From: a plasmid
Direction: 5' to 3' (one strand)
Length of the DNA: 64,000 nucleotides
Sequence record: NZ_CP019209.1
A program made the position numbers and the translations under genes. The notes under the pieces were generated by a model. The model worked only from the letters and a program-made list of their open reading frames with translations, ran no database searches and had not been told where the DNA came from. Shown in pieces: positions 1 through 54,437 of this stretch (positions are counted from its first letter, which is position 1; each line of letters begins with the position of its first letter).

Positions 1-133
1 AATAATCTTAAATCGTTTAATATCAAGATATACAATTAAGAAACAAACATCGACTGTTTATTTTGCTCACAAACTTTGGTCGGGGAGTGAGCGACTTCTT
101 ATTTTTATTTTGTTATTAATATAACACTAACAA

Positions 134-166
134 AAGACTTGGTCTAATTAGATCAAGTCTTTTTTA
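134..166 (+). terminator. Rho-independent terminator-like hairpin (AAGACTTG..CAAGTCTT followed by TTTTTT)
   Basis: 8-bp perfect stem with 12-nt loop followed by a T6 run; the reverse-strand side is also T-rich, so it may act in both directions. Confidence 0.4.
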
Positions 167-605
167 GTACCAAAACTTATTACATAATCAAAACTTAATT
201 CTCTTTAGATAATTTATATTGCTGGTAAGTATAATAAACTATCAATGATTGCACTACTACTTGTGAAAAAGCTAATGATACTCGAATGATTTTCTTCGTT
301 TTCTCACTCATTTTACTCAACTCCTTTCGTTGCTTTATTCCAATTTCCTTATTGGTCGGAACCTACAGGGCTTTATGTGTTGTTGAGTTGGTACTTTCTT
401 GGGATTAATCCCAATTCAAGTCCAACCAACTCGCTAACAAGTTAGCTAACACATAGCCCATTCCAACCAATAAGTTTTCTCGGCATAAAAACGTGTTATA
501 ATACTATTAGTTGTTTTTTCATAAGGAGTTACCCCCTTATTTGCATTTATTTTGCATTTTAAGGGGGTATTTTGCGTATTTAGCCCTTTTTATATATAAA
601 TCTAC

Positions 606-1157
606 CTAAAGGTCATTAAATACTCTAAAAAACAATGCTATGAGCCACAGAATGATAGCGAAGAATACATAGGGTACTGCATAAAGTATCAACATCAAAT
701 ATCGCCATGCACTTTCGTGGTCATCAATAAAACCATTAATAAAGCTATATAAATGTTCAATACCAAAGAAATGACCTATCGGACCTGTCACAAGCATTAC
801 AAGTACAAAAATAATTAGCACAAAAAATATATTTGTAACGCCTTTTGTCATCACTTTTAGCGCTGTATTCGATTTATCAACCACTTTGTTATGGTCTTTT
901 ATTTTACTTTCTAAGATTTCTTTATACTCTTTTGTTTCTTCTCTCGCTTGTTTCGTCACTTCACGTATTTCGTCTTTAGTATCGCTTAATTCATCTTGAA
1001 TAGCTTGTTGAAAATCTAATTTCAAATTATCTTCATCAAGTCGTTTAATATAGTGCTTTGCAGTTGTTTCAAAGTTTAATCTTGCATGCTTAGTCTTTTC
1101 TTCAAAAACATCTAACTTATTATTAAAGTTCGAGGTCGAAGCCTCTAGTCTTTTCAT
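606..1157 (-). CDS. Hypothetical membrane protein: N-terminal charged coiled-coil region, C-terminal ~3 TM helices
   Basis: 183-aa ORF with a K/E-rich helical N-terminus and a hydrophobic C-terminus. The upstream region runs into the IS1216 end at 1197. Confidence 0.5.
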   Translation of the reverse strand: MKRLEASTSNFNNKLDVFEEKTKHARLNFETTAKHYIKRLDEDNLKLDFQQAIQDELSDTKDEIREVTKQAREETKEYKEILESKIKDHNKVVDKSNTALKVMTKGVTNIFFVLIIFVLVMLVTGPIGHFFGIEHLYSFINGFIDDHESAWRYLMLILYAVPYVFFAIILWLIALFFRVFNDL

Positions 1158-1196
1158 GAGTATGTTTGTTCTCTCGTTCCTGTCTTGCTCGCTCTT

Positions 1197-1628
1197 CGGT
1201 TCTGTTGCAAAGTTTTAAATAAAGAATAAAATCCCTTACGGTATCTATGATTTAAGCTGGGATTCCCAATAATACCTTGATTTCAGTACAGACCGAAAAC
1301 CCGAAGAGAGTGCCTTCTTTCCGGGTTTTCTTATATAATCCTCGAATGGCTTCCATGCCTTTAATCGTGGTAGAGGCAGTGCGTAAACTTCGATAGAATT
1401 TATTGCGTCTCTTTACTGGACGATGGTCTTGTTCAATCAAATTATTCAGGTATTTAATGGTACGATGTTCTGTCCCTTGATAAAAGCCGTATTCTTTTAG
1501 TTTCTTAAAGGCACTTGTAATAGAGGGGGCTTTATCTGTGACTACAACCTTCGGTTCATCAAACTGCTTCACTAACCGCTTAAGAAAAGCATAGGCTGCT
1601 TGTGTGTCCCGTTTTTTACGTAACCAAA
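1197..1628 (-). mobile_element. IS1216-type (IS6 family) fragment: right IR plus 3' part of tnp, cut off by the next IS6 element
   Basis: IR GGTTCTGTTGCAAAGTTTTAAAT at 1197. The 129-aa ORF (1252..1641) is identical to the C-terminal half of the full IS1216 transposases at 10535 and 53697. Confidence 0.85.
1252..1628 (-). pseudogene. Truncated IS6-family (IS1216) transposase, C-terminal ~125 aa only
   Basis: Translation matches residues ~102-226 of the intact 226-aa IS1216 Tnp in this window. The N-terminal residues of the track ORF are read from the IR of the neighbouring IS. Confidence 0.85.
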
Positions 1629-2436
1629 GGTTCTGTTGCAAAGTTTTCCAAAAAATCTATTTTAGTGTAAAATTGAGAAAAAAGACAGAGAGGACAGAGT
1701 AATGAATCATTTTAAAGGCAAACAATTCAAAAAAGACGTCATTATTGTCGCTGTTGGTTACTACCTGCGTTACAATCTAAGCTATCGTGAAGTTCAGGAA
1801 TTGTTATATGATCGTGGAATAAATGTTTGTCATACTACGATTTATCGTTGGGTGCAAGAGTACAGCAAAGTCCTCTATTATCTTTGGAAGAAGAAAAATA
1901 GACAATCCTTCTATTCATGGAAAATGGACGAAACCTATATCAAAATTAAGGGACGTTGGCATTATCTTTATCGTGCAATTGATGCGGACGGCTTAACCTT
2001 AGATATCTGGTTACGAAAGAAACGGGATACGCAAGCAGCCTATGCTTTCTTAAAACGACTCCATAAACAGTTTGGTGAGCCGAAAGCAATTGTGACCGAT
2101 AAAGCACCTTCTCTTGGCTCCGCCTTTAGAAAGTTACAGAGTGTGGGTTTATATACTAAGACAGAGCACCGAACTGTGAAGTATCTTAACAATTTAATAG
2201 AACAAGACCATCGACCTATTAAACGACGAAATAAATTTTATCAAAGTCTCCGTACAGCCTCTTCCACGATTAAGGGCATGGAGACCATTCGAGGAATATA
2301 TAAAAAGAACCGAAGAAATGGAACGCTCTTCGGCTTTTCGGTGTCTACTGAAATCAAGGTATTAATGGGAATAACAGCCTAAGATATTTGGAGTTCAGAG
2401 AGGGCGCGTTTGATTTTCAAACTTCGCAACAGAACC
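1629..2436 (+). mobile_element. Second IS6-family element (ISS1/IS1297-like, ~80% aa identity to IS1216 Tnp), 808 bp with both IRs
   Basis: IRL GGTTCTGTTGCAAAGTTTT at 1629 and IRR (rc GGTTCTGTTGCGAAGTTTGAAAATCA) ending at 2436. It is inserted into, and truncates, the IS1216 fragment. Confidence 0.85.
1702..2382 (+). CDS. tnp: IS6-family DDE transposase (226 aa)
   Basis: Full-length ORF, collinear with the IS1216 Tnp but diverged (KKDVII..., HKQFGEPKAIVTDKAP). Confidence 0.9.
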   Translation: MNHFKGKQFKKDVIIVAVGYYLRYNLSYREVQELLYDRGINVCHTTIYRWVQEYSKVLYYLWKKKNRQSFYSWKMDETYIKIKGRWHYLYRAIDADGLTLDIWLRKKRDTQAAYAFLKRLHKQFGEPKAIVTDKAPSLGSAFRKLQSVGLYTKTEHRTVKYLNNLIEQDHRPIKRRNKFYQSLRTASSTIKGMETIRGIYKKNRRNGTLFGFSVSTEIKVLMGITA

Positions 2437-2499
2437 AAAAAATTGGTTTAATTGTTCTGTACTAGGTTCTCCTAAATAAATGCCAAATGCTTTTTTGTT

Positions 2500-2641
2500 A
2501 CTTTTGATTTCATCCATTTAAACCCTCCATGAAGTAAATTTTAAGTCTACATAAAATTTATTTTTAAAAATGCTATGATAGCAGTAAAACTACAAGTAAA
2601 TTTTACATGTAAATTATATCACTTTTAAAAAGGAGTTTTTT
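2500..2641. promoter_or_regulatory. Putative res/operator region upstream of resolvase (AT-rich imperfect palindromes TTTACATGTAAA, AATTTTA-N8-TAAAATT)
   Basis: Palindromic subsites directly 5' of the serine recombinase gene, as is typical for res sites. Confidence 0.35.
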
Positions 2642-3247
2642 ATGGGAAAAATTGGCTATATTCGAGTATCTTCACAAGATCAAAATTTGGATCGACAATT
2701 GGCAATGATGGAAGGACTTAACATTGATAAATTATTCCAAGAAAAAGCCAGTGGTAAAGATACTGAGCGTCCTGAGTTTCAAAAATTACTAAATTATATC
2801 CGTGAAGGTGATTGCGTCATCGTTACATCACTAGATCGTTTAGGAAGAGATTATGAAGATATAAAAAATACAGTTGCTTTTATGAAACAGAAAAAAGTAG
2901 CGTTAAAAATATTAGATGCACAGTTTTTAGATTTTAATACTGGAAATGAACTCCTGGATACCGCTATGTTCGATATGTTTTTATCACTGCTAAGTTATAT
3001 TGCACAAAACGAGCGTGAGAAAATTCGTGAACGTCAGCGGCAAGGAGTATTATTGGCTCAAAAAGCCGGCCGATATAAGGGACGACCAATCGAGTATTCT
3101 ATTAACTCAACAGATCCGCAAAAACGCTTAGTTTTTAAAACCGTGGTGGACATGTTAAAGCAAGGCATTCCAGTTGCAGAGATTGCAAAAGAAAACGGGA
3201 TCTCTCGACCAACTATTTATAAAATAAAGAAAGCGAATGATTTGTAG
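2642..3247 (+). CDS. Serine recombinase / resolvase (201 aa)
   Basis: N-terminal catalytic motif GYIRVSSQDQNLDRQ and a C-terminal HTH; resolvase/invertase family. Confidence 0.9.
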   Translation: MGKIGYIRVSSQDQNLDRQLAMMEGLNIDKLFQEKASGKDTERPEFQKLLNYIREGDCVIVTSLDRLGRDYEDIKNTVAFMKQKKVALKILDAQFLDFNTGNELLDTAMFDMFLSLLSYIAQNEREKIRERQRQGVLLAQKAGRYKGRPIEYSINSTDPQKRLVFKTVVDMLKQGIPVAEIAKENGISRPTIYKIKKANDL

Positions 3248-3291
3248 AAATATACTACATTCATTCGCTTTTCTACCGCACTATTTCGTTT

Positions 3292-3459
3292 CTATGTTCC
3301 ATGTACCCCGTATCGGCGATGGCATTTAGGACAGTAAAAGTAATTTTTTTGATAAACACTTTTTGCTAATTCCCCACAGTCACACTCCACGTGAAAAGCA
3401 ATATTTCGATTAAAACTAGTTATTTCAATGCCCCAACGATCATAAGATTTTCGCTTCAT
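3292..3459 (-). CDS. Small Cys4 zinc-ribbon protein (55 aa; not in the ORF track)
   Basis: ATG at 3459 preceded by AAGGAGG 9 nt upstream. Translation MKRKSYDRWGIEITSFNRNIAFHVECDCGELAKSVYQKNYFYCPKCHRRYGVHGT, with CxC...CxxC. Confidence 0.5.
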   Translation of the reverse strand: MKRKSYDRWGIEITSFNRNIAFHVECDCGELAKSVYQKNYFYCPKCHRRYGVHGT

Positions 3460-3492
3460 AAAAATTTTCCTCCTTGTAAATTTTACTAACGA

Positions 3493-3798
3493 TTATAAAT
3501 ACCGTTGCCATTCTTTCAACTGTTGACTAATTAACGCATAAAATTCGACTTCTGATAAAATGGTAATCTCATGACCTAACGCAATCAAGTCCCGCGCGGT
3601 TTGTTCCTTTTTTGTATAGAGAGAATCATCAAACAACGACTTAGAATACTGACCACAAACCAGGAAATTTGTTTTTGAAGTAACACTTGATTGACAATGG
3701 CCGTTTAAAGAGTGAACCAAACCGATGGCTTGGGTTCGTGTCATTTGCTGCAGCGTTCCAGTAAAAACGACCCTTTGATTCGTTAAGTCCATTTTCAA
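3493..3798 (-). CDS. Stand-alone BRCT-domain protein (101 aa), LigA-BRCT-like
   Basis: VVFTGTLQQMTRTQAIGLVHSLNGHCQSSVTSKTNFLVCGQ follows the BRCT consensus of NAD-ligase C-termini (GKtvVlTGtL..sR.eA......G.kvsgSVSKKTdlvVaG). It lies 35 nt downstream of the resolvase gene on the same strand. Confidence 0.6.
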   Translation of the reverse strand: MKMDLTNQRVVFTGTLQQMTRTQAIGLVHSLNGHCQSSVTSKTNFLVCGQYSKSLFDDSLYTKKEQTARDLIALGHEITILSEVEFYALISQQLKEWQRYL

Positions 3799-3832
3799 AC
3801 TCTCCCTTCCCGTCTAATAGCTGTTATATCTA

Positions 3833-4450
3833 TCAAGAAAAGTGGTGCAAGGTATGTTCATATTCTTTCACCCGTCGATAAAAGGTATTTCGTTTCATGC
3901 CCAATTGATCCATAGCATAGACTGCAGTTATCTTTCCTGCTTTCCAGTCAGAATAGATCGCAGGAAATTCAGGAGGTAAAGCAATTTTCTTTCTGCCGAA
4001 TTTTACACCCTTTTGTTTCGCAGCTTCTACGCCTTCTCTTTGCCGGCTATTAATTCGTTTCCGCTCGTCTTCGGCCATATAGCTGAGTAATTGCAGAATT
4101 AAGTCAGAGATAAGCGTCTCTAACCCATCTAGTTGCTTGTAACTAGCAGTATCTAACAGAGGCATGTCTAACACAGAAATATCAATCTGCTTTTCCTTAG
4201 TTAATTCTCGCCATTCTTCTAAAATCATTTGTTTATTTCTGCCTAGTCTATCTAATGATTGTAGATAGAGTAAATCTCCTTTTCGAAACATCCGTTTCAT
4301 TAATTGATATTCAGGGCGTTTAAAATCTTTGCCGCTGGCTTTTTCTACAAATATATATTCTTCAGGGATTCCTAATTCCTTCGCGGAAATCAGTTGTCGT
4401 TCGATCGATTGATCATAACTACTGACCCGGATATAAAAAAATTTTCTCAT
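3833..4450 (-). CDS. Serine recombinase / resolvase (205 aa)
   Basis: YIRVSSYDQSIERQ catalytic N-terminus and C-terminal HTH; resolvase family, distinct from the 2642 copy. Confidence 0.9.
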   Translation of the reverse strand: MRKFFYIRVSSYDQSIERQLISAKELGIPEEYIFVEKASGKDFKRPEYQLMKRMFRKGDLLYLQSLDRLGRNKQMILEEWRELTKEKQIDISVLDMPLLDTASYKQLDGLETLISDLILQLLSYMAEDERKRINSRQREGVEAAKQKGVKFGRKKIALPPEFPAIYSDWKAGKITAVYAMDQLGMKRNTFYRRVKEYEHTLHHFS

Positions 4451-4545
4451 CGTTTTTATCTACCCTTTTTTCACTAAAATTGTTTCAAAACAATCAGATT
4501 AAATCAGAAACGTTTCAAATTGTATTATGTGGTTATTATGCCATA
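4451..4545. promoter_or_regulatory. Putative res site for the 3833-4450 resolvase (TTGTTT-ca-AAACAA palindrome plus GTTTCAAAT repeat)
   Basis: Palindromic half-sites immediately 5' of the resolvase start. Confidence 0.35.
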
Positions 4546-4774
4546 CATAAACAAAGAAAATCAAGGCATGTCAAAAAGTATACTTTTTGAAACAGTAAGT
4601 TTACACTCCCGCATGATTATATTTATTCCGCTAAAATACATAAAAATGGCAGGCCTTAACGGTCTGCCATTAAATAAACTAGTTATCCAGTTTTTCTTTT
4701 ATGTCTTCCATGGTATATTTTATTTTTCACATCAGAATTTGACTTCTTTAACTTTTACAATTTTTTTAACACTA

Positions 4775-5170
4775 TTATTCTATTACAACACTATATATTT
4801 CTAATTTAGGGTTAAAAATAAATCTTTTTGATACTTTTGCCTTTACAATATAATTGTATTCTTTCTTTTTTTCTTTGAAGTCGCTTGATTCAACTGTAAC
4901 TTCAAACCACATTTCATTTGGAGACTCTTTTAATTTTTTTACTTGAAATGAATTATCTCTTGGATCATAAGGTGGTACTCTTTCAAACTCAGGAAGTTTT
5001 CTCTGTATTTGTTCTTCAGGAGTATTCGCAAAGTAATCTACTATCTTGACAGTTATTAAAAGTACTACTATTCCCAAAACTATAACAAACATAAAGATAA
5101 TTCCACATCCAGAATTATTTTTATTATTTTGAGTCAGATTATTCCATTCTATTTCTTCCATAATCATCAT
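4775..5170 (-). CDS. Small single-pass membrane protein (131 aa); candidate immunity or accessory partner of the upstream large protein
   Basis: One N-terminal TM (GIIFMFVIVLGIVVLLITV) followed by a ~90-aa charged domain. It lies 80 nt downstream of the 783-aa gene on the same strand. Confidence 0.5.
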   Translation of the reverse strand: MMIMEEIEWNNLTQNNKNNSGCGIIFMFVIVLGIVVLLITVKIVDYFANTPEEQIQRKLPEFERVPPYDPRDNSFQVKKLKESPNEMWFEVTVESSDFKEKKKEYNYIVKAKVSKRFIFNPKLEIYSVVIE

Positions 5171-5249
5171 GTCCTTTTACAATTCATATACTTATTTTAT
5201 CGTATATATTTAAAAAGGAAAAGGACACTGTTTAAATAGTAAACGATTC

Positions 5250-7601
5250 TTAATTAAGTTTACTTCTATTTTCTTGAAATTGAATAATTTTTTCAGAAAA
5301 TCCATTTGCAACTTTCCCCTCATCTCCAATAAAATCAAGATAAGTAAAATCTGTCCCAAGTGAATTATTAACTATTTTATCAATGAAAAATGAAATTATC
5401 CCTACACCTAAGATATCAACTGTTTCGTCATTTTCTAATAAACTATTTGTTACTGAAGCGATTTTATCTGAAGAACCAAATCTGTTCTTAACAAATTGAT
5501 TAAATCTATCAATAGCACCCTTATCACAATAGTACGTTTTTAAAGCCGATAAAGCTGTTGAATCAGAATTTCTTTTTGCTAAGGTATAAACATTTACCGC
5601 GTCAACATCTTGGTATAAATCTTCTAGACTAAATGTTCCACCTGCAGCCGTACCTACTAATGCAAATACACCTTGCTCCATTTGTATTCCTAATTTCTTA
5701 ACTTCACCCCAGCAAGTCATTAAATCTCCTAACCAACCTGCAAAGTCAGAAACACTATCATTGATTGTGTCGGCTAGAAACATCTGTGATTGTAACGTCA
5801 CAATTAAGTGAGGCAAACCTATTATTGAACCAGTATTAGGATCTATAAAATAATTATACAGGCCCTCGCTATTAGTTAATTTATTCCTATATTCATCATA
5901 AATTTTTCTATCATGCTCTGTTACAGGAGAAGAAATGATGTCCCATGACAAACCAGAATAATTTACATATCTATAAAATGTCAAATGAGGGTTCCAAGGA
6001 TTATCAAGACCAGCTTGTGATAGATATTGATACGCACGTACCATCTGATTTATAACCTTCTGATTGTATTTGGCAATGTAATTATCATTATTAGTATCAT
6101 TTGATAACTCATTAAATCCGCTATCTCTACCCGATGTAGCGATTAAATCGATACCAACAGCTCCGTTGCCACTTCCTATGGTAAATTCAACAAATTGATC
6201 AAAAGACCATTGTCTAGGCATAGGAAAACCTAAATTCCCACTATAACCAGTCGACATATCTGAAACAAATGCAAACGAAGCATACCCGTTATTGATTATT
6301 TGAGAACAAACATTTCTTGTTCCGTAAACACCCGTTTGATACCCGCTATATGACATTACAGCAGATACCCCCTTAAAATATTCTCCAGCATATGCAAGAA
6401 TTTCTTCCCCTAACATGTCTAGATCAACAGCAAAATAAATAACTGTTGTTAATGGTATATTTAGATTTTTTGCTGCATCTATAGCCTTCTTACCATCTGA
6501 TAAGCCACGATCATAAGTAAAATAAGCTAATGCTGCACCTCCATCTTGATAGATAGGAAACACAGATAAATTTTTAGAAAAAATATTATTCAATTCCTCT
6601 GTAGTTAGATACTTATTTCGTTCATCTTTTCCAATTCCAACAGTACCAGTAAGATATCTACCAACTATTTTTATATCATTATCAACCAATGTTTGGATTT
6701 GAGATCTAGTTAATTGCGTAGAAGTATCTGCGCCATCTGCAGATCTTCTAATATCTCCAGCGCTAGACAATAGTCCTTTTATTACAACAACATCTGCTAT
6801 TTCAGTATATTCAGGCAATACCATAAATTTTCGGAATGCCAGTACTTCTAAACCCATATATTTAGTGAAAATACCATCGAATGTACCGTCTTCAAAATAA
6901 CCATTAACATATAATCCATATTGAATTATTCTTACATAGTTTCCCGAGTTACCTTCAGACACAGGATAAGTTTTACTAGTTGTCCCATTACCATAAGACC
7001 CTGTTGCTTCACTGGGAGAATATCCTAGTTCAGCTTGTAATGCAAAAATTAATGCTTGATTTGAATTTCTTTGATAAATACCATCACAAGGCATTATTCC
7101 CGTGTATTCTAAATAATTTACATTTAACCATTGCTGCATTTTTCTAATTTTACTATCTCCGCCGGGAACAAGAACAAAAGCACTCATATCAAATAACGCT
7201 TTGGCCCATTTCGCATCCAAAACTCCAGTTACAGCGCTTCCATTAAACCCTGCATCAGTCTGCAACTCTTTTACAGCAGTATCTAAATATGGAGTATATA
7301 CCCCATCGAAGCCACCTGGATTAATCCCCTTACACCAAAAGGCACCTTGAATAAGAAATACAATATTTTTAGGTAGATTTTTGCCCCATTTAGGAGTAAC
7401 CTGATTATCGTACATTTTTTCAGTGGTAGGTCCAAAATTAGCTACTAGATTAGTAATACCAAGTTCTACTTGTAGTCCTTCAATAAGTCCATAGATTGTA
7501 GGCCACCCTGTTCGCCCATTTTCTGGAACCTTATCAAACCCTGTAACATTACTGTATTTCTTGTTTAGCCATTTCTGAGTACTTAAAACCATCTCATCCA
7601 T
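5250..7601 (-). CDS. Large peptidoglycan-binding / glycoside-hydrolase-like protein (783 aa), no signal peptide; candidate muralytic bacteriocin-like enzyme
   Basis: 3-4 N-terminal PG_binding_1-like repeats (e.g. VKELQTDAGFNGSAVTGVLDAKWAKAL), a central TIM-barrel glycosidase-like (DUF1906/GH25-like) region (IVGRYLTG...VIYFAVDLD) and a ~300-aa C-terminal region of unknown function. Confidence 0.55.
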   Translation of the reverse strand: MDEMVLSTQKWLNKKYSNVTGFDKVPENGRTGWPTIYGLIEGLQVELGITNLVANFGPTTEKMYDNQVTPKWGKNLPKNIVFLIQGAFWCKGINPGGFDGVYTPYLDTAVKELQTDAGFNGSAVTGVLDAKWAKALFDMSAFVLVPGGDSKIRKMQQWLNVNYLEYTGIMPCDGIYQRNSNQALIFALQAELGYSPSEATGSYGNGTTSKTYPVSEGNSGNYVRIIQYGLYVNGYFEDGTFDGIFTKYMGLEVLAFRKFMVLPEYTEIADVVVIKGLLSSAGDIRRSADGADTSTQLTRSQIQTLVDNDIKIVGRYLTGTVGIGKDERNKYLTTEELNNIFSKNLSVFPIYQDGGAALAYFTYDRGLSDGKKAIDAAKNLNIPLTTVIYFAVDLDMLGEEILAYAGEYFKGVSAVMSYSGYQTGVYGTRNVCSQIINNGYASFAFVSDMSTGYSGNLGFPMPRQWSFDQFVEFTIGSGNGAVGIDLIATSGRDSGFNELSNDTNNDNYIAKYNQKVINQMVRAYQYLSQAGLDNPWNPHLTFYRYVNYSGLSWDIISSPVTEHDRKIYDEYRNKLTNSEGLYNYFIDPNTGSIIGLPHLIVTLQSQMFLADTINDSVSDFAGWLGDLMTCWGEVKKLGIQMEQGVFALVGTAAGGTFSLEDLYQDVDAVNVYTLAKRNSDSTALSALKTYYCDKGAIDRFNQFVKNRFGSSDKIASVTNSLLENDETVDILGVGIISFFIDKIVNNSLGTDFTYLDFIGDEGKVANGFSEKIIQFQENRSKLN

Positions 7602-7690
7602 AAAAATCCCCTGCTTTCTTGCCGAACATACGTTCGTTTATGTGTTGATTATATTTTATATTTTAGTGTTTGTCAACAACTAAAAATAAT

Positions 7691-9204
7691 GGCTCTATAA
7701 TTTATGGGACTGATGAATCAGAATTGATTCTTCAGCCCCATTTTTATTTTAGGTATTAAAAAACATATCGTTCTCTAGTATGATTAAATCACGACAAAAT
7801 AAACAACTGAGAGGACGATATGCTATATGAATGATTCTATCAAAAAAATGCTGCGATTAATAGAGAAAGATTTGATGATTACAGAGGTCTCTTACGAGAC
7901 CTTTCAGAAGAAAAAGACGTTGATCGTCGATGCTGTTTTCTCACCTGCTCCCCATACCTGTAGAAATTGTGGTTCTACTGTGGTAGATGGAAACGGGAAA
8001 GTAATTGTAGTGAAAAATGGGAAGAAGGAAACGATTGTCCGCTTTGAACAATACAATCACATGCCTTTGGTTATGCGCTTAAAAAAGCAGCGCTATACCT
8101 GTAAAAACTGTCGAACCCATTGGACGGCTCAAAGTTATTTTGTTCAACCCAGACATTCAATCGCGAATCATGTCAGATATAAAATTGCTTCTTTACTGAC
8201 TGAAAAAGTATCTTTATCTTTTATTGCGAAAAATTGTCAGGTATCTTTGACCACCGTTATTCGTACGTTGAAAGAGTTTAAAAGCTACTTACCAAAGCAA
8301 TCTAAGAGGATTCTCCCCAGAGTATTGATGGTTGATGAATTTCGTTCGCACGCTTCCATAGAAGATAAAATGAGCTTTATTTGCGCAGATGGCGAAACAG
8401 GACAATTAATTGATGTCTTGCCTACGCGTAAATTGCCTCGATTAACAAGCTATTTCTTAGGCTGCGCTAATCCTGAAGAAGTAAAATTTTTAGTCACAGA
8501 CATGAACGCCGCCTACTTCCAGCTTACCAAACGTATTCTGCCAAATGCGAAAGTAGTGATTGATCGGTTTCATATTATCAAACACATGAATCAAGCCTTT
8601 AATGAGTTGCGTATCCGTGAAATGAATGAACTTCGTAAAGTAGGACAGAAAAGTCAGGCAGAAAAACTGAAAAAGAACTGGCGCTTTTTGCTAAAAAATC
8701 GTGCAAACATCAACCATTATGAATACAAAACATGGAAAAGTTTTCGAGCACCAAAATACCCATTTCTTACGGAAGCGATGATGATTGATCGATTGCTTGG
8801 CTTTTCTACGTCCCTGAAGGAGGCGTATCCCTATTTTCATGAATTAGTTGAAGCCTTTCGAGACAAAGACCCTGACTTATTTTTCTCCTTATTGGCAGAA
8901 CTTCCCGAAACGTTAGATGACGGCTTTCGGGAAAAGCTCCAAAACCTTCTGACCTATGAAGAAGGCATCACCAACGCGATGATCTATCCTTACACCAATG
9001 GAAAAATAGAAGCGAAGAATACCCATATAAAGACAATGAAACGAGTATCCTACGGATTTAAATCATTTGAGAACATGAGAATTAGAATCTTTTTGATCAA
9101 TCAATTAATCAAAGTAAGATAACAAAAAATCTGAGCCAGAATGAGGTTCATTCTGACCCAGATTTGATTTTGTACAACCCATCAGTCCTTATTGACAAAG
9201 AGCC
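7691..9204 (+). mobile_element. ISL3-family IS (IS1251-like), intact, flanked by 8-bp TSD AAAATAAT
   Basis: Terminal IRs GGCTCT...GGACTGATG at both ends. The same 8-mer AAAATAAT sits at 7683-7690 and 9205-9212. Contains a 431-aa ISL3 Tnp. Confidence 0.85.
7827..9122 (+). CDS. tnp: ISL3-family transposase (431 aa)
   Basis: N-terminal zinc-finger CRNCGS...CKNCRTHW and a DDE domain. A near-identical 5'-truncated copy sits at 35260. Confidence 0.9.
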   Translation: MNDSIKKMLRLIEKDLMITEVSYETFQKKKTLIVDAVFSPAPHTCRNCGSTVVDGNGKVIVVKNGKKETIVRFEQYNHMPLVMRLKKQRYTCKNCRTHWTAQSYFVQPRHSIANHVRYKIASLLTEKVSLSFIAKNCQVSLTTVIRTLKEFKSYLPKQSKRILPRVLMVDEFRSHASIEDKMSFICADGETGQLIDVLPTRKLPRLTSYFLGCANPEEVKFLVTDMNAAYFQLTKRILPNAKVVIDRFHIIKHMNQAFNELRIREMNELRKVGQKSQAEKLKKNWRFLLKNRANINHYEYKTWKSFRAPKYPFLTEAMMIDRLLGFSTSLKEAYPYFHELVEAFRDKDPDLFFSLLAELPETLDDGFREKLQNLLTYEEGITNAMIYPYTNGKIEAKNTHIKTMKRVSYGFKSFENMRIRIFLINQLIKVR

Positions 9205-9247
9205 AAAATAATAAAACAGCACAAAGAAATCTCTTTGTGCTGTTTTA

Positions 9248-9938
9248 TTAAATATTTTGAACAACATAATACGTACCTGCAACAGGATTATAAGTGTAAT
9301 AAATACCTATATTCATTGTCCAACCAGGCCCGTTTGGTGCAAAGTATTTGAATCCTTCACGAGCATACAATGCCATTCCTTGAATAGAACCAGATTTAGT
9401 TGCGTTGGCTTGATTTACATTTCCTACTCTTCCATCGTCAATGTAGGATTTCCAACGTAAAAAGTTGCCTGTACCATCAGCTGGTTTTACACCCATACCT
9501 CCAAAACGCCATCCCGCACCACTAAATGGCTGTGATTTATAGCTTCCTCCTCCTGCTAGTACAAGAAGGTGTCCGCTAGTACCAACATCGGGTGGAAATG
9601 CTCCTCGAGGCAAAATTGGAGTAGTTTCAATATCATTTTTGAATTTTTCAGCAACAATTTTTTTTGCTTCTGTCACTGAAACTGAAGCAGGATCAGTTTC
9701 TGAATTATATGAACCTTGAATTATATCTGGATTATCCATAGATACAATTTTAGCTTCCCCTTTTAAAAAACCACCTTCTGGCAATGCAAGTACTTTATCT
9801 TCTTCTTCAAAATCAGCAAAGTATCGTGAGGCGTACTGCTCTGGATCTGAAATAACTTCTTTCTCAGCAGCATATAACTGCATTTCCAAATGTTAACATC
9901 ATAAGTAGCCCAACAGAAACACCAAAAATCTTTTTCAT
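9248..9938 (-). pseudogene. Secreted protein gene with an apparent frameshift between signal peptide and mature domain
   Basis: A strong RBS (AAGGAAG) and ATG at 9938 open MKKIFGVSVGLLMMLTFGNAVICC, which stops at ~9864. The 213-aa body (9248..9889) is in another frame, offset by 1 nt around 9870-9890. Confidence 0.45.
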
Positions 9939-9951
9939 AATGAATCTTCCT

Positions 9952-10413
9952 TTACTCTAATTCCACTGAATTAGTTTCTTTTATCTGCTTTAATTCATTT
10001 CTTTTACTATTTAAAAGCTCTTTTAGATCCTTAATCGAAATAGCGTTGGAATCAGTATTAACATCAATAAACTGTCTGTGATTTTGTTTATAACTAACTA
10101 ATTCGGATTTGCCATCTCCCATTAATTGCCCACCAGCAGACAAGACAACAATTTTATCTGAGTCACTAATTCCTGGAATACTTTCTTCTAACTGTTCCCC
10201 GGATAAATCACCAAATTCTTTATACAATTCTTCATCTGACATAGAATAGATATTTTTGGTCAAACTCATTTTTTTATTATTATGTTCAGCTACTCTTTGA
10301 TCTTTTATTTGAGCGTTTGAATTAACAGAATCTAAATTCAAAAGAAAATAGCCCCCAATTAATATTGTAAATACTGAAAAAATACTTAGTATCGTTTTTT
10401 TCACGATTCTCAC
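9952..10413 (-). CDS. Membrane-anchored hypothetical protein (153 aa)
   Basis: N-terminal TM anchor then a soluble domain; co-directional and adjacent to the frameshifted secreted protein. Confidence 0.5.
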   Translation of the reverse strand: MRIVKKTILSIFSVFTILIGGYFLLNLDSVNSNAQIKDQRVAEHNNKKMSLTKNIYSMSDEELYKEFGDLSGEQLEESIPGISDSDKIVVLSAGGQLMGDGKSELVSYKQNHRQFIDVNTDSNAISIKDLKELLNSKRNELKQIKETNSVELE

Positions 10414-10460
10414 CTCGCTTTCTTATTAAATTTATAATATATATCTACGATAAGATAATT

Positions 10461-11269
10461 GGTTCTGTTGCAAAGTTTTAAATCTACTATCAAATAAGAT
10501 AGAATAATAGAAAAAGATAGCAGGAGGAATAACGATGAATCATTTTAAAGGAAAGCAATTTCAGCAGGATGTGATTATTGTAGCCGTGGGCTACTATCTT
10601 CGTTATAACCTTAGCTATCGTGAAGTTCAAGAAATCTTATATGATCGTGACATTAACGTTTCTCATACGACGATTTATCGTTGGGTGCAAGAATATGGCA
10701 AACTACTCTATCAAATTTGGAAAAAGAAAAATAAAAAATCCTTTTATTCATGGAAAATGGATGAAACGTACATCAAAATTAAAGGAAAATGGCATTATTT
10801 GTATCGAGCCATCGATGCAGATGGTTTAACCTTGGATATTTGGTTACGTAAAAAACGGGACACACAAGCAGCCTATGCTTTTCTTAAGCGGTTAGTGAAG
10901 CAGTTTGATGAACCGAAGGTTGTAGTCACAGATAAAGCCCCCTCTATTACAAGTGCCTTTAAGAAACTAAAAGAATACGGCTTTTATCAAGGGACAGAAC
11001 ATCGTACCATTAAATACCTGAATAATTTGATTGAACAAGACCATCGTCCAGTAAAGAGACGCAATAAATTCTATCGAAGTTTACGCACTGCCTCTACCAC
11101 GATTAAAGGCATGGAAGCCATTCGAGGATTATATAAGAAAACCCGAAAAGAAGGCACTCTCTTCGGGTTTTCGGTCTGTACTGAAATCAAGGTATTATTG
11201 GGAATCCCAGCTTAAATCATAGATACCGTAAGGGATTTTATTCTTTATTTAAAACTTTGCAACAGAACC
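10461..11269 (+). mobile_element. IS1216 (IS6 family), complete with both IRs
   Basis: IRL GGTTCTGTTGCAAAGTTTTAAATC at 10461 and IRR ending at 11269. The flanks show no 8-bp TSD, consistent with IS26-like cointegrate or deletion history. Confidence 0.9.
10535..11215 (+). CDS. tnp: IS1216 transposase (226 aa)
   Basis: Full-length IS6-family Tnp, identical to the copy at 53697 apart from a few residues. Confidence 0.9.
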   Translation: MNHFKGKQFQQDVIIVAVGYYLRYNLSYREVQEILYDRDINVSHTTIYRWVQEYGKLLYQIWKKKNKKSFYSWKMDETYIKIKGKWHYLYRAIDADGLTLDIWLRKKRDTQAAYAFLKRLVKQFDEPKVVVTDKAPSITSAFKKLKEYGFYQGTEHRTIKYLNNLIEQDHRPVKRRNKFYRSLRTASTTIKGMEAIRGLYKKTRKEGTLFGFSVCTEIKVLLGIPA

Positions 11270-11316
11270 ATAATAAGTCTCTATTTTTCAATAACTATTG
11301 CAAAATTATATCTTAA

Positions 11317-12636
11317 TTAAGAAAATATTTTTATTTTAAAGATAAAAAATTCTTCATCCTGCAATACTTTATATTCTATATTGTAATTATTCAGAATATT
11401 ACTTACAATATATAAACCTAATCCATTACTATTTTCCTTATTTAAATCAAATTTAACATCAAATATTTTATCCATATTCGAAATTTTATTGTTACCGTAT
11501 GAATTCTCTATATATAACCAATCATTAACTATCCCAATATTAATTACCCCATTTACATCAGTATATTTTACCGCATTACTAATCAAATTAGATAGAATAA
11601 TCTTTAAAGCTGTTTTTCCTATATAAACATTCTCGTCTAATATATAATTATTGACAGTTATTTTCTTTTGATTTGCTAATATTTCATACTTTTTTAATAT
11701 GTCTTCTAATGTATCATTTATTTTCAAATATTCTTCATCATTATTCAAATTTTCTATAGAATGAACTGATAATATTTGAGAAATATTTTTTGTTAAACTA
11801 TCAACGATTTCAATACATTCATTAATATAAATATCTCTTTCTTTATATTTTCCAATATTGTATTTCATGTTTTCCAGTATTATTTTAAGACTAGCAAGAG
11901 GGGTTTTAAGTTCATGGGATGCACCTTTAAAAAAGTCATATTTTAACTTTTCTAATTTTAAAATTTCTTTATTTTTAAATTCCAAATCGTCAATTGTTCT
12001 TAATAAAGTAGAATACAAATCATTAATTTGTTGTTTTAATTCTCCAACTTCATCATTAGAGCTAACTTTTAAACTCATTTTTTTATCAAGTTTCATCATT
12101 TTATCAGTAACAATTTTTATTTCTTGTATATTATTTTTTATTGATTTTGCATAAATTAAAGAAATAATAGCAGAAAATAAAATTGATATTAATAAAGAAT
12201 ATGGTAAAAATTTAAGGCTTAAATCTTTCGCATCTTTTTGCATATCAGCTGTAGAAACAAATTGTAGATTTGTTTTTTTACCATCATTAAGCTTTATTTC
12301 TCTTTCTTCAATTATCAAAGAATTACTATCACTTTCTAAATTAACATTTATATTATCTTTGATTTGTATTTCATTCTTATTATTTTTTTCTTTTATGAAT
12401 ACTTTTATTTCACTACTCTTGGAATAAAACTCCAAAGTTTGTTCTATATATTTTATTTCTTTTCCATTCATATTACTAGAAATTTCATTTGCCATATTAT
12501 GAATCTTTTCTTTTCTCGTCTCCAAATATGTTTTAGGAAAGATAAAAAAAATTAATGAATGAACTAATATAATTATTATTCCAAGAACAGAAAATATTTG
12601 TATGAACATTTTTGGAAATATCTTTAATTTTTTCAT
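11317..12636 (-). CDS. Sensor histidine kinase (439 aa), 2 TM with an extracytoplasmic loop; extremely AT-rich
   Basis: H-box HELKTPLASLKIILENM, HATPase N/G boxes at the C-terminus, two TM segments. GC is far below neighbouring DNA. Confidence 0.8.
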   Translation of the reverse strand: MKKLKIFPKMFIQIFSVLGIIIILVHSLIFFIFPKTYLETRKEKIHNMANEISSNMNGKEIKYIEQTLEFYSKSSEIKVFIKEKNNKNEIQIKDNINVNLESDSNSLIIEEREIKLNDGKKTNLQFVSTADMQKDAKDLSLKFLPYSLLISILFSAIISLIYAKSIKNNIQEIKIVTDKMMKLDKKMSLKVSSNDEVGELKQQINDLYSTLLRTIDDLEFKNKEILKLEKLKYDFFKGASHELKTPLASLKIILENMKYNIGKYKERDIYINECIEIVDSLTKNISQILSVHSIENLNNDEEYLKINDTLEDILKKYEILANQKKITVNNYILDENVYIGKTALKIILSNLISNAVKYTDVNGVINIGIVNDWLYIENSYGNNKISNMDKIFDVKFDLNKENSNGLGLYIVSNILNNYNIEYKVLQDEEFFIFKIKIFS

Positions 12637-53628: not shown

Positions 53629-54437
53629 GGTTCTGTTGCAAAGTTTTAAATCTACTATCAGATAAGGTAGAATAATAGAAAAAGATAGCAGGAGGAATGA
53701 CGATGAGTCATTTTAAAGGAAAGCAATTTCAGCAGGATGTGATTATTGTAGCCGTGGGCTACTATCTTCGTTATAACCTTAGCTATCGTGAAGTTCAAGA
53801 AATCTTATATGATCGTGGCATTAACGTTTCTCATACGACGATTTATCGTTGGGTGCAAGAATATGGCAAACTACTCTATCAAATTTGGAAAAAGAAAAAT
53901 AAAAAATCCTTTTATTCATGGAAAATGGATGAAACGTACATCAAAATTAAAGGAAAATGGCATTATTTGTATCGAGCCATCGATGCAGATGGTTTAACCT
54001 TGGATATTTGGTTACGTAAAAAACGGGACACACAAGCAGCCTATGCTTTTCTTAAACGGTTAGTGAAGCAGTTTGATGAACCGAAGGTTGTAGTCACAGA
54101 TAAAGCCCCCTCTATTACAAGTGCCTTTAAGAAACTAAAAGAATACGGCTTTTATCAAGGGACAGAACATCGTACCATTAAATACCTGAATAATTTGATT
54201 GAACAAGACCATCGTCCAGTAAAGAGACGCAATAAATTCTATCGAAGTTTACGCACTGCCTCTACCACGATTAAAGGCATGGAAGCCATTCGAGGATTAT
54301 ATAAGAAAACCCGAAAAGAAGGCACTCTCTTCGGGTTTTCGGTCTGTACTGAAATCAAGGTATTATTGGGAATCCCAGCTTAAATCATAGATACCGTAAG
54401 GGATTTTATTCTTTATTTAAAACTTTGCAACAGAACC
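53629..54437 (+). mobile_element. IS1216 (IS6 family), complete; direct orientation relative to the 10461 copy
   Basis: IRL at 53629, IRR ending at 54437, and a 226-aa Tnp. Confidence 0.9.
53697..54383 (+). CDS. tnp: IS1216 transposase
   Basis: 228-aa ORF (possible start 2 codons upstream of the usual MNHF). Confidence 0.9.
   Translation: MTMSHFKGKQFQQDVIIVAVGYYLRYNLSYREVQEILYDRGINVSHTTIYRWVQEYGKLLYQIWKKKNKKSFYSWKMDETYIKIKGKWHYLYRAIDADGLTLDIWLRKKRDTQAAYAFLKRLVKQFDEPKVVVTDKAPSITSAFKKLKEYGFYQGTEHRTIKYLNNLIEQDHRPVKRRNKFYRSLRTASTTIKGMEAIRGLYKKTRKEGTLFGFSVCTEIKVLLGIPA

Follow-up and report, generated by a model that had tools for sequence, protein, structure and literature searches.

Comparisons of its sequence indicate that the region at positions 1629-4594 of the window (the whole 64,000-nt stretch of plasmid DNA that was analyzed) is the junction of two unrelated elements, the end of a Tn3-family transposon and a plasmid-backbone operon. 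We favor, with moderate confidence, an explanation in which this transposon-end junction adjoins a resB-BRCT cassette, with the BRCT protein serving as a DNA-binding accessory. What enters into this explanation as anatomy, homology or recurrent synteny was observed directly and is described below.

A transposon end joined to a plasmid operon

We checked the open reading frames of the window and found the four named in the first-pass annotation (resA, the Zn-ribbon ORF, the BRCT ORF and resB), each in its place. The features are:

1629-2436, + strand: IS6-family insertion sequence (IS1216/ISS1N-like), with its transposase at 1702-2382; truncates the Tn3-family transposase gene
2437-2517, – strand: tnpA remnant, first 27 codons, matching the beginning of the Tn3-family transposase gene in locus L050 with 100% identity
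2518-2641, no strand: res site and divergent promoter region between tnpR and tnpA, with the same sequence as the tnpR-tnpA intergenic region in L050
2642-3247, + strand: resA, the transposon resolvase gene (tnpR), 201 aa, outside the BRCT cassette
3273-3309, – strand: transposon terminal inverted repeat, 37 nt, GGGGTACATGGAACATAGAAACGAAATAGTGCGGTAG, inside the 3' end of the Zn-ribbon ORF
3292-3459, – strand: truncated UvrC-like Cys4 Zn-ribbon gene, 55 aa, CDCG...CPKC
3492-3519, – strand: promoter-like site, TTGAAA-16 nt-TATAAT, 11/12 matches (consensus scan, a pattern match only)
3493-3798, – strand: stand-alone BRCT protein, 101 aa from TTG 3798 or 99 aa from ATG 3792 (PGAP)
3833-4450, – strand: resB, small serine recombinase, 205 aa, first gene of the resB-BRCT-(uvrC-like) cassette
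4451-4594, no strand: putative res site and promoter of resB, with repeats or palindromes and a promoter-like site

The first element (2437-3309) is the left end of a Tn3-family transposon of ~3.95 kb, made up of a terminal repeat, tnpR (resA), a res site and a tnpA stub cut by the IS6 element. The resA product matched PF00239 (E 1.2e-32) and HTH_7 (E 6.8e-9) in Pfam. Tn3-family elements have inverted repeats of ~38 bp around tnpA and a 5-bp target duplication. Both L050 and L051 have the repeats (perfect, 38-40 nt, ~3.9 kb apart, enclosing the resA gene and a divergent Tn3-family transposase gene), and the L051 copy has the duplication (TAAAA). The window is identical to the L050 transposon from 3309 to 2437, and identity with that intact transposon stops at 2436/2437, at the inverted repeat of the IS6 element (GGTTCTGTTGCAAAGTTT, at 1629-1646 on the + strand and 2419-2436 on the – strand). 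PGAP names the transposase of this element 'IS6-like element ISS1N family transposase', and a listed 40-aa ORF (2395-2517) is the tnpA remnant reading on into the IS6 repeat. The sequence beginning GGGGTACATGG is the transposon-end repeat, and at its outer end, 3309, it meets the truncated Zn-ribbon gene. The repeat sequence of 3273-3309 makes both transposon ends in L050 and L051, and it had one exact match in the window and none in shuffled sequences. resA, the res repeats, the tnpA stub and the 37-nt GGGG... repeat all match the complete L050 and L051 copies of the Tn3-family module (IR-tnpR-res-tnpA-IR). However, the window keeps only the tnpR end (one inverted repeat, tnpR, res and 27 tnpA codons), with tnpA cut by the IS6 element and a junction that lacks a target duplication.

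The second element (3310-4594) is the promoter-proximal part of a plasmid-backbone operon, in which a three-dyad res site and promoter are followed by resB, the BRCT gene and the uvrC-like Zn-ribbon gene. In intact plasmids, the operon runs on into DUF6440 and the Y-family polymerase gene uvrA, which is preceded by a LexA box; here, everything past codon 50 of the Zn-ribbon gene has been replaced by the transposon end. The order resB-BRCT-Zn was found again in L050, L051 and L052. L051 has MazF-resB-BRCT-uvrC-like-DUF6440-Y-family polymerase, with a full-length uvrC-like gene upstream of uvrA and a polymerase 99% identical to pAD1-type UvrA. L052 has resB-BRCT-uvrC-like-DUF6440 beside prgP/ParA and a rep gene, without uvrA. 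The window Zn-ribbon gene equals the 65-aa gene of L051 and L052 through ...CHRRY and then reads GVHGT* instead of KQKQGEYVAITIIKE*; codons 1-50 (3310-3459) are native, and the transposon repeat supplies codons 51-55 and the stop. An Rfam scan of window positions 1-12000 had no match in this region.

The junction has GATAC on one side and GTAAT on the other, without a target duplication, and is therefore a secondary rearrangement. In PLSDB, the junction allele was in 237 plasmids and the intact allele in 33. With resA identified as a transposon tnpR, and with the terminal repeat of that transposon cutting into the Zn-ribbon gene, the convergent gene arrangement is a rearrangement scar.

The first-pass annotation had taken the four genes for one compact unit, a reading in which the BRCT and Zn-ribbon proteins would serve both opposed recombinases. 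The genes are contiguous and jointly 100% conserved in >200 Enterococcus plasmids, but such joint conservation is the spread of one nearly identical segment. Moreover, resA is bounded by the transposon inverted repeats along with tnpA, the same transposon is placed 2.6 kb further off, after uvrA, in L051, and the junction, with no target duplication, interrupts the Zn-ribbon gene at codon 50. The single unit is ruled out by the intact loci L051 and L052, unless resA should prove to act on the resB res site, and we give it almost no credence.

The BRCT protein and the truncated uvrC-like gene

The BRCT protein is, as judged from profile and structure-database matches, of the RFC1/LigA type. This class of BRCT domains includes the 5'-phosphate DNA-binding BRCT domain of RFC1 p140. 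BRCT domains are best known from eukaryotic DNA-damage signaling, and we know of no bacterial stand-alone BRCT protein to which a role has been assigned. Residues 5-89 matched PF00533 in Pfam with 28.9 bits (gathering score 21.3; E 1.3e-6). In NCBIfam, the protein matched two kinds of model at their C-terminal BRCT ends: PRK06195 (exonuclease-BRCT), over positions 220-307 of 309 (E 1.6e-20), and LigA (E 1e-8 to 1e-9). The closest sequences with solved structures were the RFC1 p140 BRCT (2K6G, 2K7F, 2EBU) and the LigA BRCT (E 2e-6 and 7e-5). The profile search of the 101-aa protein thus found a BRCT family above its gathering score and only the C-terminal parts of LigA and exonuclease-BRCT models, in agreement with the LigA-type BRCT without a ligase body that the first-pass annotation had described.

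The BRCT ORF was neither a LigA nor an exonuclease-BRCT protein. As LigA, it matched only model positions ~585-641 (36 bits; cut-off 444) and had no adenylation, OB, Zn-finger or HhH domains. As PRK06195, it scored 73.8 bits (cut-off 373) and lacked the N-terminal DEDDh/RNase_T domain. There is no room for an exonuclease remnant because resB ends 34-40 nt upstream. The gene had been placed 35 nt after a resolvase gene; it does adjoin resB, and the gap we measured was 34 nt to the TTG and 40 nt to the ATG.

The residues of the phosphate pocket were conserved. Across 30 stand-alone homologues, RFC1 and LigA, T13, G14, R21, T43 and G49 were invariant or nearly so (T13 and R21 in 32/32, G14 in 31/32), and most sequences had K at position 41 or 42. 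These residues align with ITG...R...SKKT of RFC1 and LTG...R...SKKT of LigA. Kobayashi et al. are said to have described, in 2006 and 2010, the roles of the phosphate-pocket residues (T-G, R, K) in RFC1 p140. The window protein resembles its best solved-structure matches in keeping the aligned TG...R...SKKT...G motif and differs from them in being a stand-alone protein of ~100 aa, without a clamp-loader, ligase or exonuclease body. A single-sequence AlphaFold model had the order beta-alpha-beta-beta-alpha-beta-alpha, but its mean pLDDT was only 52.9. Word-indexed protein searches with the BRCT and Zn-ribbon proteins returned near-identical fragments only.

The Zn-ribbon ORF, previously taken for a micro-ORF of unknown kind, is homologous to pAD1 uvrC but truncated, and the DUF6440-uvrA segment that would follow it downstream is deleted. 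Its product is 47% identical to pAD1-type UvrC ('UvrA repressor UvrC'; E 1e-16) and has the four conserved Cys (CDCG...CxxC) of the UvrC-type regulator of pAD1. The strong AAGGAGG RBS that had been reported is present at 3469-3475 on the – strand, 9 nt ahead of the ATG. The gene had also been listed as missed by the ORF track; PGAP calls it (WP_000824191.1, 'hypothetical protein', in some records 'transcriptional regulator'), and both small genes were already annotated by PGAP. The promoter-like site at 3492-3519, inside the 3' end of the BRCT gene, is placed where it could drive the Zn-ribbon gene.

The Zn-ribbon protein would be a small UvrC-type regulator, and in the window it is probably a relic, because its target locus and its C-terminal strand are lost. 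There is no Y-family polymerase gene in the 64-kb window, and the uvrC-like allele there is not upstream of uvrA. In a model (pLDDT 67) of P0013, a full-length relative with 80% identity to the window ORF, strands are at residues 49-53 and 56-60; going by this model, the window protein would lack the second strand and have a shortened first one. A Foldseek search of the PDB with the P0013 model gave no match better than E ~1, generic zinc ribbons only. The Zn-ribbon partner was confined to Enterococcus. Separately, a distant homologue was found in a topB-AbiE-ssb cluster.

The pAD1 uvr locus had the same synteny as the intact loci, consisting of a recombinase, a ~100-aa gene, uvrC, DUF6440, and uvrA preceded by a Cheo box (LexA box). 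This locus (uvrA, uvrB, uvrC) was reportedly described by Ozawa et al. in 1997, with UvrC as a repressor of uvrA transcription. The PGAP product name also marks pAD1 UvrC as the repressor of the Y-family polymerase gene uvrA. However, the recombinases are only 28% identical, the ~100-aa gene encodes the BRCT protein here and an unrelated protein of 95-104 aa in pAD1-type plasmids, and the window has lost uvrA and DUF6440 and retains a truncated uvrC-like gene. We considered the 95-104-aa protein as a cryptic BRCT and rejected this (no BLASTP alignment; hhalign probability 0.4%). We likewise rejected LexA control of the cassette: the Cheo box is ahead of uvrA only, and there was none near resB, the BRCT gene or the Zn-ribbon gene.

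BRCT genes and serine recombinases on other plasmids

Both recombinase genes of the region have a putative res site with multiple dyad subsites overlapping a promoter (2532-2631 for resA, 4476-4594 for resB). The res-like palindromes of the first-pass annotation are real on both sides, upstream of resA and of resB. The resA repeats are two related 38-nt units (2532-2569 and 2594-2631) with 62-nt spacing and an internal dyad each. Upstream of resB are three dyads carrying GTTTCAAA, at about 4476-4492, 4500-4522 and 4570-4593 (GTATAC is at the center of the last one), and a consensus scan placed a promoter-like site at 4535-4564 (TTGATT-18 nt-CATAAT with TG). Upstream of resB, the window, L051 and L052 stay homologous as far as 4593/4594; this module boundary coincides with the outer edge of the first dyad. 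The resB product matched PF00239 (E 4.4e-24) and, weakly, HTH_8 (E 0.014) in Pfam. Together, resB and its res site would make up a plasmid multimer-resolution system.

Stand-alone BRCT genes were linked to serine recombinase genes well beyond the window. A co-directional PF00239 gene was directly beside the BRCT gene in 10 of 15 assessable lineages, with the recombinase gene first in five lineages and the BRCT gene first in the other five. The tight pairs ranged from an 8-nt overlap to a 54-nt gap. In Lactococcus, the spacing was 175-600 nt or one gene lay between, and one sub-lineage was convergent. The partner recombinases belonged to diverse lineages and were mostly <45% identical to one another. 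In every metagenomic locus with a resolvase, the resolvase was the immediate neighbor of BRCT, among 11-18 called genes. The first-pass annotation had staked its accessory-factor proposal on a BRCT-family match and on recombinase linkage in other contexts, and we found both. It had also proposed a check of whether the resolvase-BRCT-Zn-ribbon neighborhood is conserved; the resolvase-BRCT pairing was conserved, and the Zn-ribbon partner was a feature of Enterococcus only.

The BRCT gene could be placed within the recombination module itself. Four cassettes with BRCT first (L067, L003, L009 and L059) had a crossover-like palindrome, GTTCAATAGGGTA|TACCCTATTGAAC, a -10 box and direct GTTCAA repeats upstream of BRCT, and homology among L067, L003 and L009 breaks at the center of the palindrome. 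Therefore, the BRCT gene in these cassettes lies between res and the resolvase gene.

A nearby resolvase was absent in 5 of the 15 stand-alone BRCT lineages. The BRCT gene of a Lactobacillaceae clade is about 850 nt from divergent parA-parB, that of P0037 has ArdC/DarA, AbiE, a nuclease, orphan methylases and SSB around it in a cluster that resembles a leading region, and those of P0042, P0066 and P0076 are in contexts other than resolvase. The divergences of BRCT proteins and resolvases were uncorrelated in a mirror-tree comparison (Mantel r 0.04, p 0.33), a result that speaks against co-evolution of the two proteins as a pair. The 10 longer relatives (160-300 aa) were RNase_T-BRCT or BRCT-only proteins, and none was a resolvase-BRCT fusion. 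We also considered BRCT as the 'ORF alpha' of pSM19035-type Inc18 plasmids and rejected this identification; there was no Streptococcus plasmid among the tblastn matches.

Possible roles of the BRCT protein

We infer co-transcription with the resolvase gene, DNA binding and a role in recombination for the BRCT protein. Its gene appears to be co-transcribed with that of the resolvase from the promoter embedded in res, and the protein, as a likely DNA-binding accessory of a plasmid resolution or maintenance cassette, would help or regulate the recombinase at the DNA level or connect it with intermediates of replication or repair. For this, a protein interface specific to one lineage is probably not required. 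Against an accessory role, Tn3-type three-site res systems are known to work without an accessory protein. The beta recombinase/six and Sin/res systems are accessory-factor-dependent and use host HU/Hbsu or IHF. These systems resemble the BRCT cassettes in being small serine recombinases of Firmicutes plasmids with a res site in their own promoter, and the arrangement in cassettes of the L067/L003 type, an inverted-repeat site followed by direct repeats, is similar as well. They differ in that their known accessory factors are host nucleoid proteins, whereas the BRCT protein is plasmid-encoded.

A more specific version of this idea is that the serine-resolvase cassettes of Firmicutes plasmids have an unrecognized third component, a stand-alone BRCT of the RFC1/LigA class, which acts directly in site-specific recombination. 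We consider this version less likely than not. The protein might recognize the phosphoseryl-DNA or broken-end intermediate, be a plasmid-encoded architectural factor at res, or gate resolution to the state of replication or repair.

We think it unlikely that BRCT is part of a UV-resistance or SOS translesion module (uvrC, DUF6440, uvrA) and is next to resB incidentally. Such a protein could, for example, bring the Y-family polymerase to gap junctions with a 5' phosphate, in the manner of the BRCT domains of Rev1 and RFC1. Intact loci of the window BRCT lineage do have BRCT directly upstream of the uvrC-like gene, DUF6440 and uvrA, the phosphate-pocket residues of the DNA-end-binding class are kept, and other BRCT lineages are near RecA or SSB. 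However, no Y-family polymerase was near BRCT in about 60 other loci or in the 64-kb window, L052 carries BRCT in the absence of uvrA, pAD1-type uvr loci have an unrelated protein at the BRCT position, and the LexA box precedes uvrA and not the cassette.

An establishment or anti-defense function seems equally improbable. BRCT would then be beside resolvases only since both are in early-expressed backbone regions. The protein could act as a decoy for BRCT proteins of the host (LigA, exonuclease-BRCT) or, by capping 5' ends, could block RecFOR loading or host nucleases. The company of P0037, the positions of P0051 and P0066 after relaxase genes, the Zn-ribbon homologue in the topB-AbiE-ssb cluster, and the fact that the nearest relatives that are not stand-alone are exonuclease-BRCT proteins all fit this reading. 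On the other hand, immediate and often overlapping adjacency to the resolvase gene in both orders, and a BRCT gene between res and the resolvase gene, are more specific than a shared backbone region, and there was no match to an anti-defense family.

The proposal in the first-pass annotation that BRCT and the Zn-ribbon protein are the sensor module of a defense-like element traveling with the recombinases is very improbable. GapS2 (E 0.0075) and PADLOC PDC-S48 (E 0.0025) align weakly with the BRCT region, over the generic BRCT domain only and far below family thresholds. An effector gene is absent, the Zn-ribbon partner is a uvrC homologue found in Enterococcus only, and the contexts are plasmid rep/par/res backbones. 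PDC-S48 was the sole PADLOC match, to the BRCT part, with none for the Zn-ribbon protein or resB, and the PHROGs and PADLOC matches were to generic BRCT or ligase models only.

The reading of the region as a junction accounts for a segment present on >200 clinical E. faecium and E. faecalis plasmids. The scar took out a plasmid-borne error-prone polymerase locus and left the resolvase-BRCT cassette. Small serine resolvases are textbook systems whose known helpers are host nucleoid proteins. Our literature search found no description of a role for BRCT in resolution systems, as the first-pass annotation had supposed, or of a plasmid-encoded BRCT partner of resolvases. Judging from the loci compared here, small BRCT and resolvase genes are paired repeatedly on many plasmids of Firmicutes. 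The BRCT gene is inside cassettes of res, promoter and resolvase in many plasmid lineages of the Lactobacillales, and we believe that the occurrence of both gene orders and of unrelated resolvase lineages points to an unstudied plasmid-encoded helper or regulator.

The four genes and the transposon junction

The four-gene stretch is part of a segment of an Enterococcus faecium megaplasmid. The first-pass annotation had located all four ORFs correctly.

2642-3247, + strand: resA, serine recombinase (PF00239)
3292-3459, - strand: Zn-ribbon ORF, 55 aa, CDCG...CPKC
3493-3798, - strand: BRCT ORF, 101 aa; PGAP start is the ATG at 3792
3833-4450, - strand: resB, serine recombinase (PF00239)
3273-3309, - strand: Tn3-family transposon terminal repeat GGGGTACATGGAACATAGAAACGAAA..., single occurrence in the window
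1198-1215, 1629-1646, 2419-2436, 10461-10478, 11252-11269, 53629-53646 and 54420-54437: IS6-family terminal repeats GGTTCTGTTGCAAAGTTT (n = 7)
5250-7601, - strand: 783-aa gene with PG_binding_1 and Rv2525c-like glycoside-hydrolase domains

Both recombinases were clear PF00239 proteins in a Pfam profile search, res-like repeats were present upstream of both genes, and the AAGGAGG RBS of the 55-aa ORF was confirmed. The 2.2-kb stretch with the four genes is 100% identical in >200 PLSDB plasmids. PGAP names the products 'recombinase family protein' (twice), 'BRCT domain-containing protein' and 'hypothetical protein' (the 55-aa ORF); both small genes were thus annotated before this analysis, and all the elements are of known kinds. 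The BRCT gene has been named briefly within a 7-kb shared region bounded by IS1216/Tn3, without analysis of its function (PMC9484755).

The proposed compact four-gene unit was an artefact of a transposon junction, and three other plasmids carry its parts separately. The order in E. faecalis pEfVSI19_03 (locus L051) is MazF toxin, resB, BRCT, a 65-aa Zn-ribbon gene, DUF6440, a Y-family DNA polymerase and a small ORF, and only beyond that ORF are there a resA-type gene and a divergent Tn3-family transposase. In L051 and a second plasmid locus, L050, perfect 38-40-nt inverted repeats ~3.9 kb apart flank resA and tnpA, and the L051 copy has the 5-bp duplication TAAAA on both sides, a signature of Tn3-family transposition. 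In alignment, the window matches the 65-aa gene without a difference up to codon 50 (...CPKCHRRY) and then enters the transposon repeat, so that GVHGT-stop replaces KQKQGEYVAITIIKE-stop. Identity to the transposon covers resA, the res region and 27 tnpA codons, and ends at 2436/2437, the boundary with an IS6-family inverted repeat. There was no target duplication at the window-type junction (flanks GATAC versus GTAAT), indicating that it arose by secondary deletion or recombination, in which DUF6440 and the polymerase gene were lost. In PLSDB, 237 plasmids have the window-type junction and 33 have an intact Zn-ribbon 3' end. We have high confidence in this anatomy, a transposon end joined to a resB-BRCT-Zn-ribbon segment.

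The seven IS6-family repeats indicate several copies of the IS1216/ISS1 type, and the entire window is an IS-mediated mosaic. A match to Rfam ctRNA_pT181 (RF00242) at 30-114 (+), barely over the gathering score (59.5 versus 56 bits), adjoins a DUF334 gene and IS6 copies.

The Zn-ribbon ORF and the uvr locus

The Zn-ribbon ORF was 47% identical to pAD1-type UvrC (E 1e-16). Relatives were found by tblastn on 1,115 Enterococcus plasmids, several of them named 'ultraviolet resistance protein UvrA repressor UvrC'. UvrC is reportedly the repressor of uvrA, as the PGAP product name also states. Plasmids of the pAD1 type carry a recombinase, a 95-aa ORF, uvrC, a 69-aa ORF, DUF6440 and uvrA in that order, and the L051 polymerase is 99% identical to their UvrA. 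A GAAC-N4-GTTC box lies 34-45 nt ahead of uvrA in L051 and the pAD1-type plasmid; none was found upstream of the resB cassette.

The family keeps the motif RK.YD.WG.E...CDCG.LA...Y.F.C..C..Y. P0013, a full-length relative, was all-beta in a predicted model (pLDDT 67), compared to which the window allele has a shortened strand 49-53 and no strand 56-60; a fold search with the model was uninformative. Based on the uvrC homology, the truncation and the lost uvrA segment, we conclude that the 55-aa ORF is most likely a remnant small regulator that has lost its target gene by deletion. The Cys4 ORF and its RBS are real; the ORF is a uvrC-like gene cut at codon 50.

Pheromone-type plasmids hold two or three UvrC-like Zn-ribbon paralogues each (L046 7859-8071; L049 5364-5558 and 7370-7585; L051 14121-14303). 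The L051 paralogue is labelled 'excinuclease ABC subunit C', apparently by confusion with the chromosomal UvrC. On another E. faecalis plasmid (L047 4290-6431), a resA-like resolvase (65% identity) has a 67-aa UvrC-like gene directly behind it, and parA, parB and a RepA_N rep gene come next. This indicates that the Zn-ribbon family itself is repeatedly downstream of resolvases, in some cases with a ~100-aa gene between the two and in others without one. Separately, a perfect Cheo/LexA box, GAACATACGTTC (7624-7635), 23 nt ahead of the start of the 783-aa gene at 7601, is conserved in L001, L050 and L052, suggesting that this gene may encode a plasmid-borne cell-wall hydrolase under SOS control.

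The BRCT protein and its linkage to serine recombinases

The 101-aa ORF was correctly called a BRCT protein (Pfam, 28.9 bits; gathering score 21.3). It matched the C-terminal BRCT of the NCBIfam exonuclease-BRCT (E 1.6e-20) and LigA (E about 1e-9) models, with no exonuclease or ligase body. The closest solved structures to the family profile were the BRCT of human RFC1 p140 (2K6G, 2K7F, 2EBU; E 2e-6) and LigA BRCT domains. T415, G416, R423 and K458 mediate binding of the RFC1 domain to 5'-phosphorylated DNA ends. The equivalent residues were well conserved when 30 stand-alone homologues were aligned with RFC1 and LigA: T13 and R21 in 32/32, G14 in 31/32, and a lysine at 41 or 42 in most; T43 and G49 were conserved too. 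A HMMER scan of 1.84 billion representatives gave 851 clusters with E ≤ 1e-3; about 30 among the best 150 were stand-alone proteins of 90-115 aa, and the longer relatives checked were mostly RNase_T exonuclease-BRCT proteins. The gene clearly encodes a protein that is under selection and falls in the DNA-binding BRCT class.

The pairing of BRCT with a recombinase was the only part of the unit idea to survive. Among the 15 BRCT lineages with sufficient flanking DNA (from PLSDB, one-genome-per-species contigs and metagenome contigs), 10 had an adjoining co-directional small serine recombinase, five in each gene order.

Recombinase-linked BRCT lineages (order, lineage, spacing)
Res>BRCT, window type: gap 34-40 nt
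Res>BRCT, P0041: 8-nt overlap
Res>BRCT, P0049: 8 nt
Res>BRCT, P0054: 54 nt
Res>BRCT, P0089: 61 nt
BRCT>Res, L002/L019: 4-nt overlap
BRCT>Res, P0035: 12 nt
BRCT>Res, P0044: 2 nt
BRCT>Res, P0051: 14 nt
BRCT>Res, Lactococcus clade: 175-600 nt or one gene between; one sub-lineage convergent

The metagenomic recombinase loci had a single PF00239 gene per 11-18 called genes, always touching BRCT. Pairwise identity of the recombinases was mostly <45%, and BRCT and recombinase divergence were not correlated (Mantel r 0.04, p 0.33); in Lactococcus, BRCTs 72-79% identical lie beside recombinases 33-40% identical. These results indicate that the pairing was re-formed many times, not inherited once. We found no description of a stand-alone BRCT gene recurrently embedded in serine-resolvase cassettes in the literature searched.

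In the P0044 context (L059/L060), BRCT comes first, followed by the resolvase gene and one for a 501-aa DUF2325 protein; a full-length recA gene lies about 2 kb downstream, and the locus looks like part of a mobile element. Short 'NPDC' contigs with Lactococcus-type BRCT and resolvase genes (L010-L017, L020, L021, L023), assigned to Streptomyces, Kitasatospora, Microbispora, Amycolatopsis and Nonomuraea, are most likely Lactococcus plasmid contamination.

Position in the cassette and possible function

Cassettes whose recombinases are beta-like (L067, L003, L009, L059) have three features upstream of BRCT: a palindrome, perfect or nearly so (GTTCAATAGGGTA|TACCCTATTGAAC), a -10 box and GTTCAA direct repeats. 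Similarity among L067, L003 and L009 stops at the centre of the palindrome, as expected of a crossover site, so that BRCT has res on one side and the recombinase gene on the other. The region ahead of resB in the window type holds three GTTTCAAA dyads and a promoter-like site, and homology to L051 extends as far as the outermost dyad and stops at its edge.

We propose with moderate confidence that resB and its res site are a multimer-resolution system and, with low to moderate confidence, that BRCT may be a DNA-binding accessory expressed together with the resolvase. The absence of co-divergence suggests that BRCT would act through DNA or through a conserved surface of the recombinase. It could act on res DNA by bending or bridging it, the part that host HU or IHF plays for the beta and Sin recombinases, and may also couple resolution to replication or repair intermediates that are nicked or gapped. 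A role in a uvr translesion module agrees with the intact loci of the window's BRCT lineage, but with that one lineage only. The BRCT protein might instead be a plasmid establishment or anti-defence factor; P0037, a lineage that has no nearby recombinase, lies in a cluster that resembles a leading region and encodes ArdC/DarA, AbiE, a nuclease, orphan methylases and SSB. The earlier suggestion of a defence sensor had no support.

P0042, P0066 and P0076 were in other contexts, without an adjoining recombinase. A Lactobacillaceae clade (32% identity) had no nearby recombinase in any copy; a divergent parA-parB operon, with at least four ParA types, always lay ~850 nt away from its BRCT gene (L005, L026, L028, L030, L033, L034, L036, L037, L040-L042). 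Translation of the spacer gives repetitive peptide motifs, which hints that the DNA there may be repetitive, perhaps as a centromere or iterons. Genes for ParA and RepA_N also adjoin many recombinase-linked copies. What the BRCT genes have in common is a location in the plasmid maintenance backbone, where they are found by preference in the resolvase cassette, and their recurrent embedding in such cassettes is a concrete lead, open to test.
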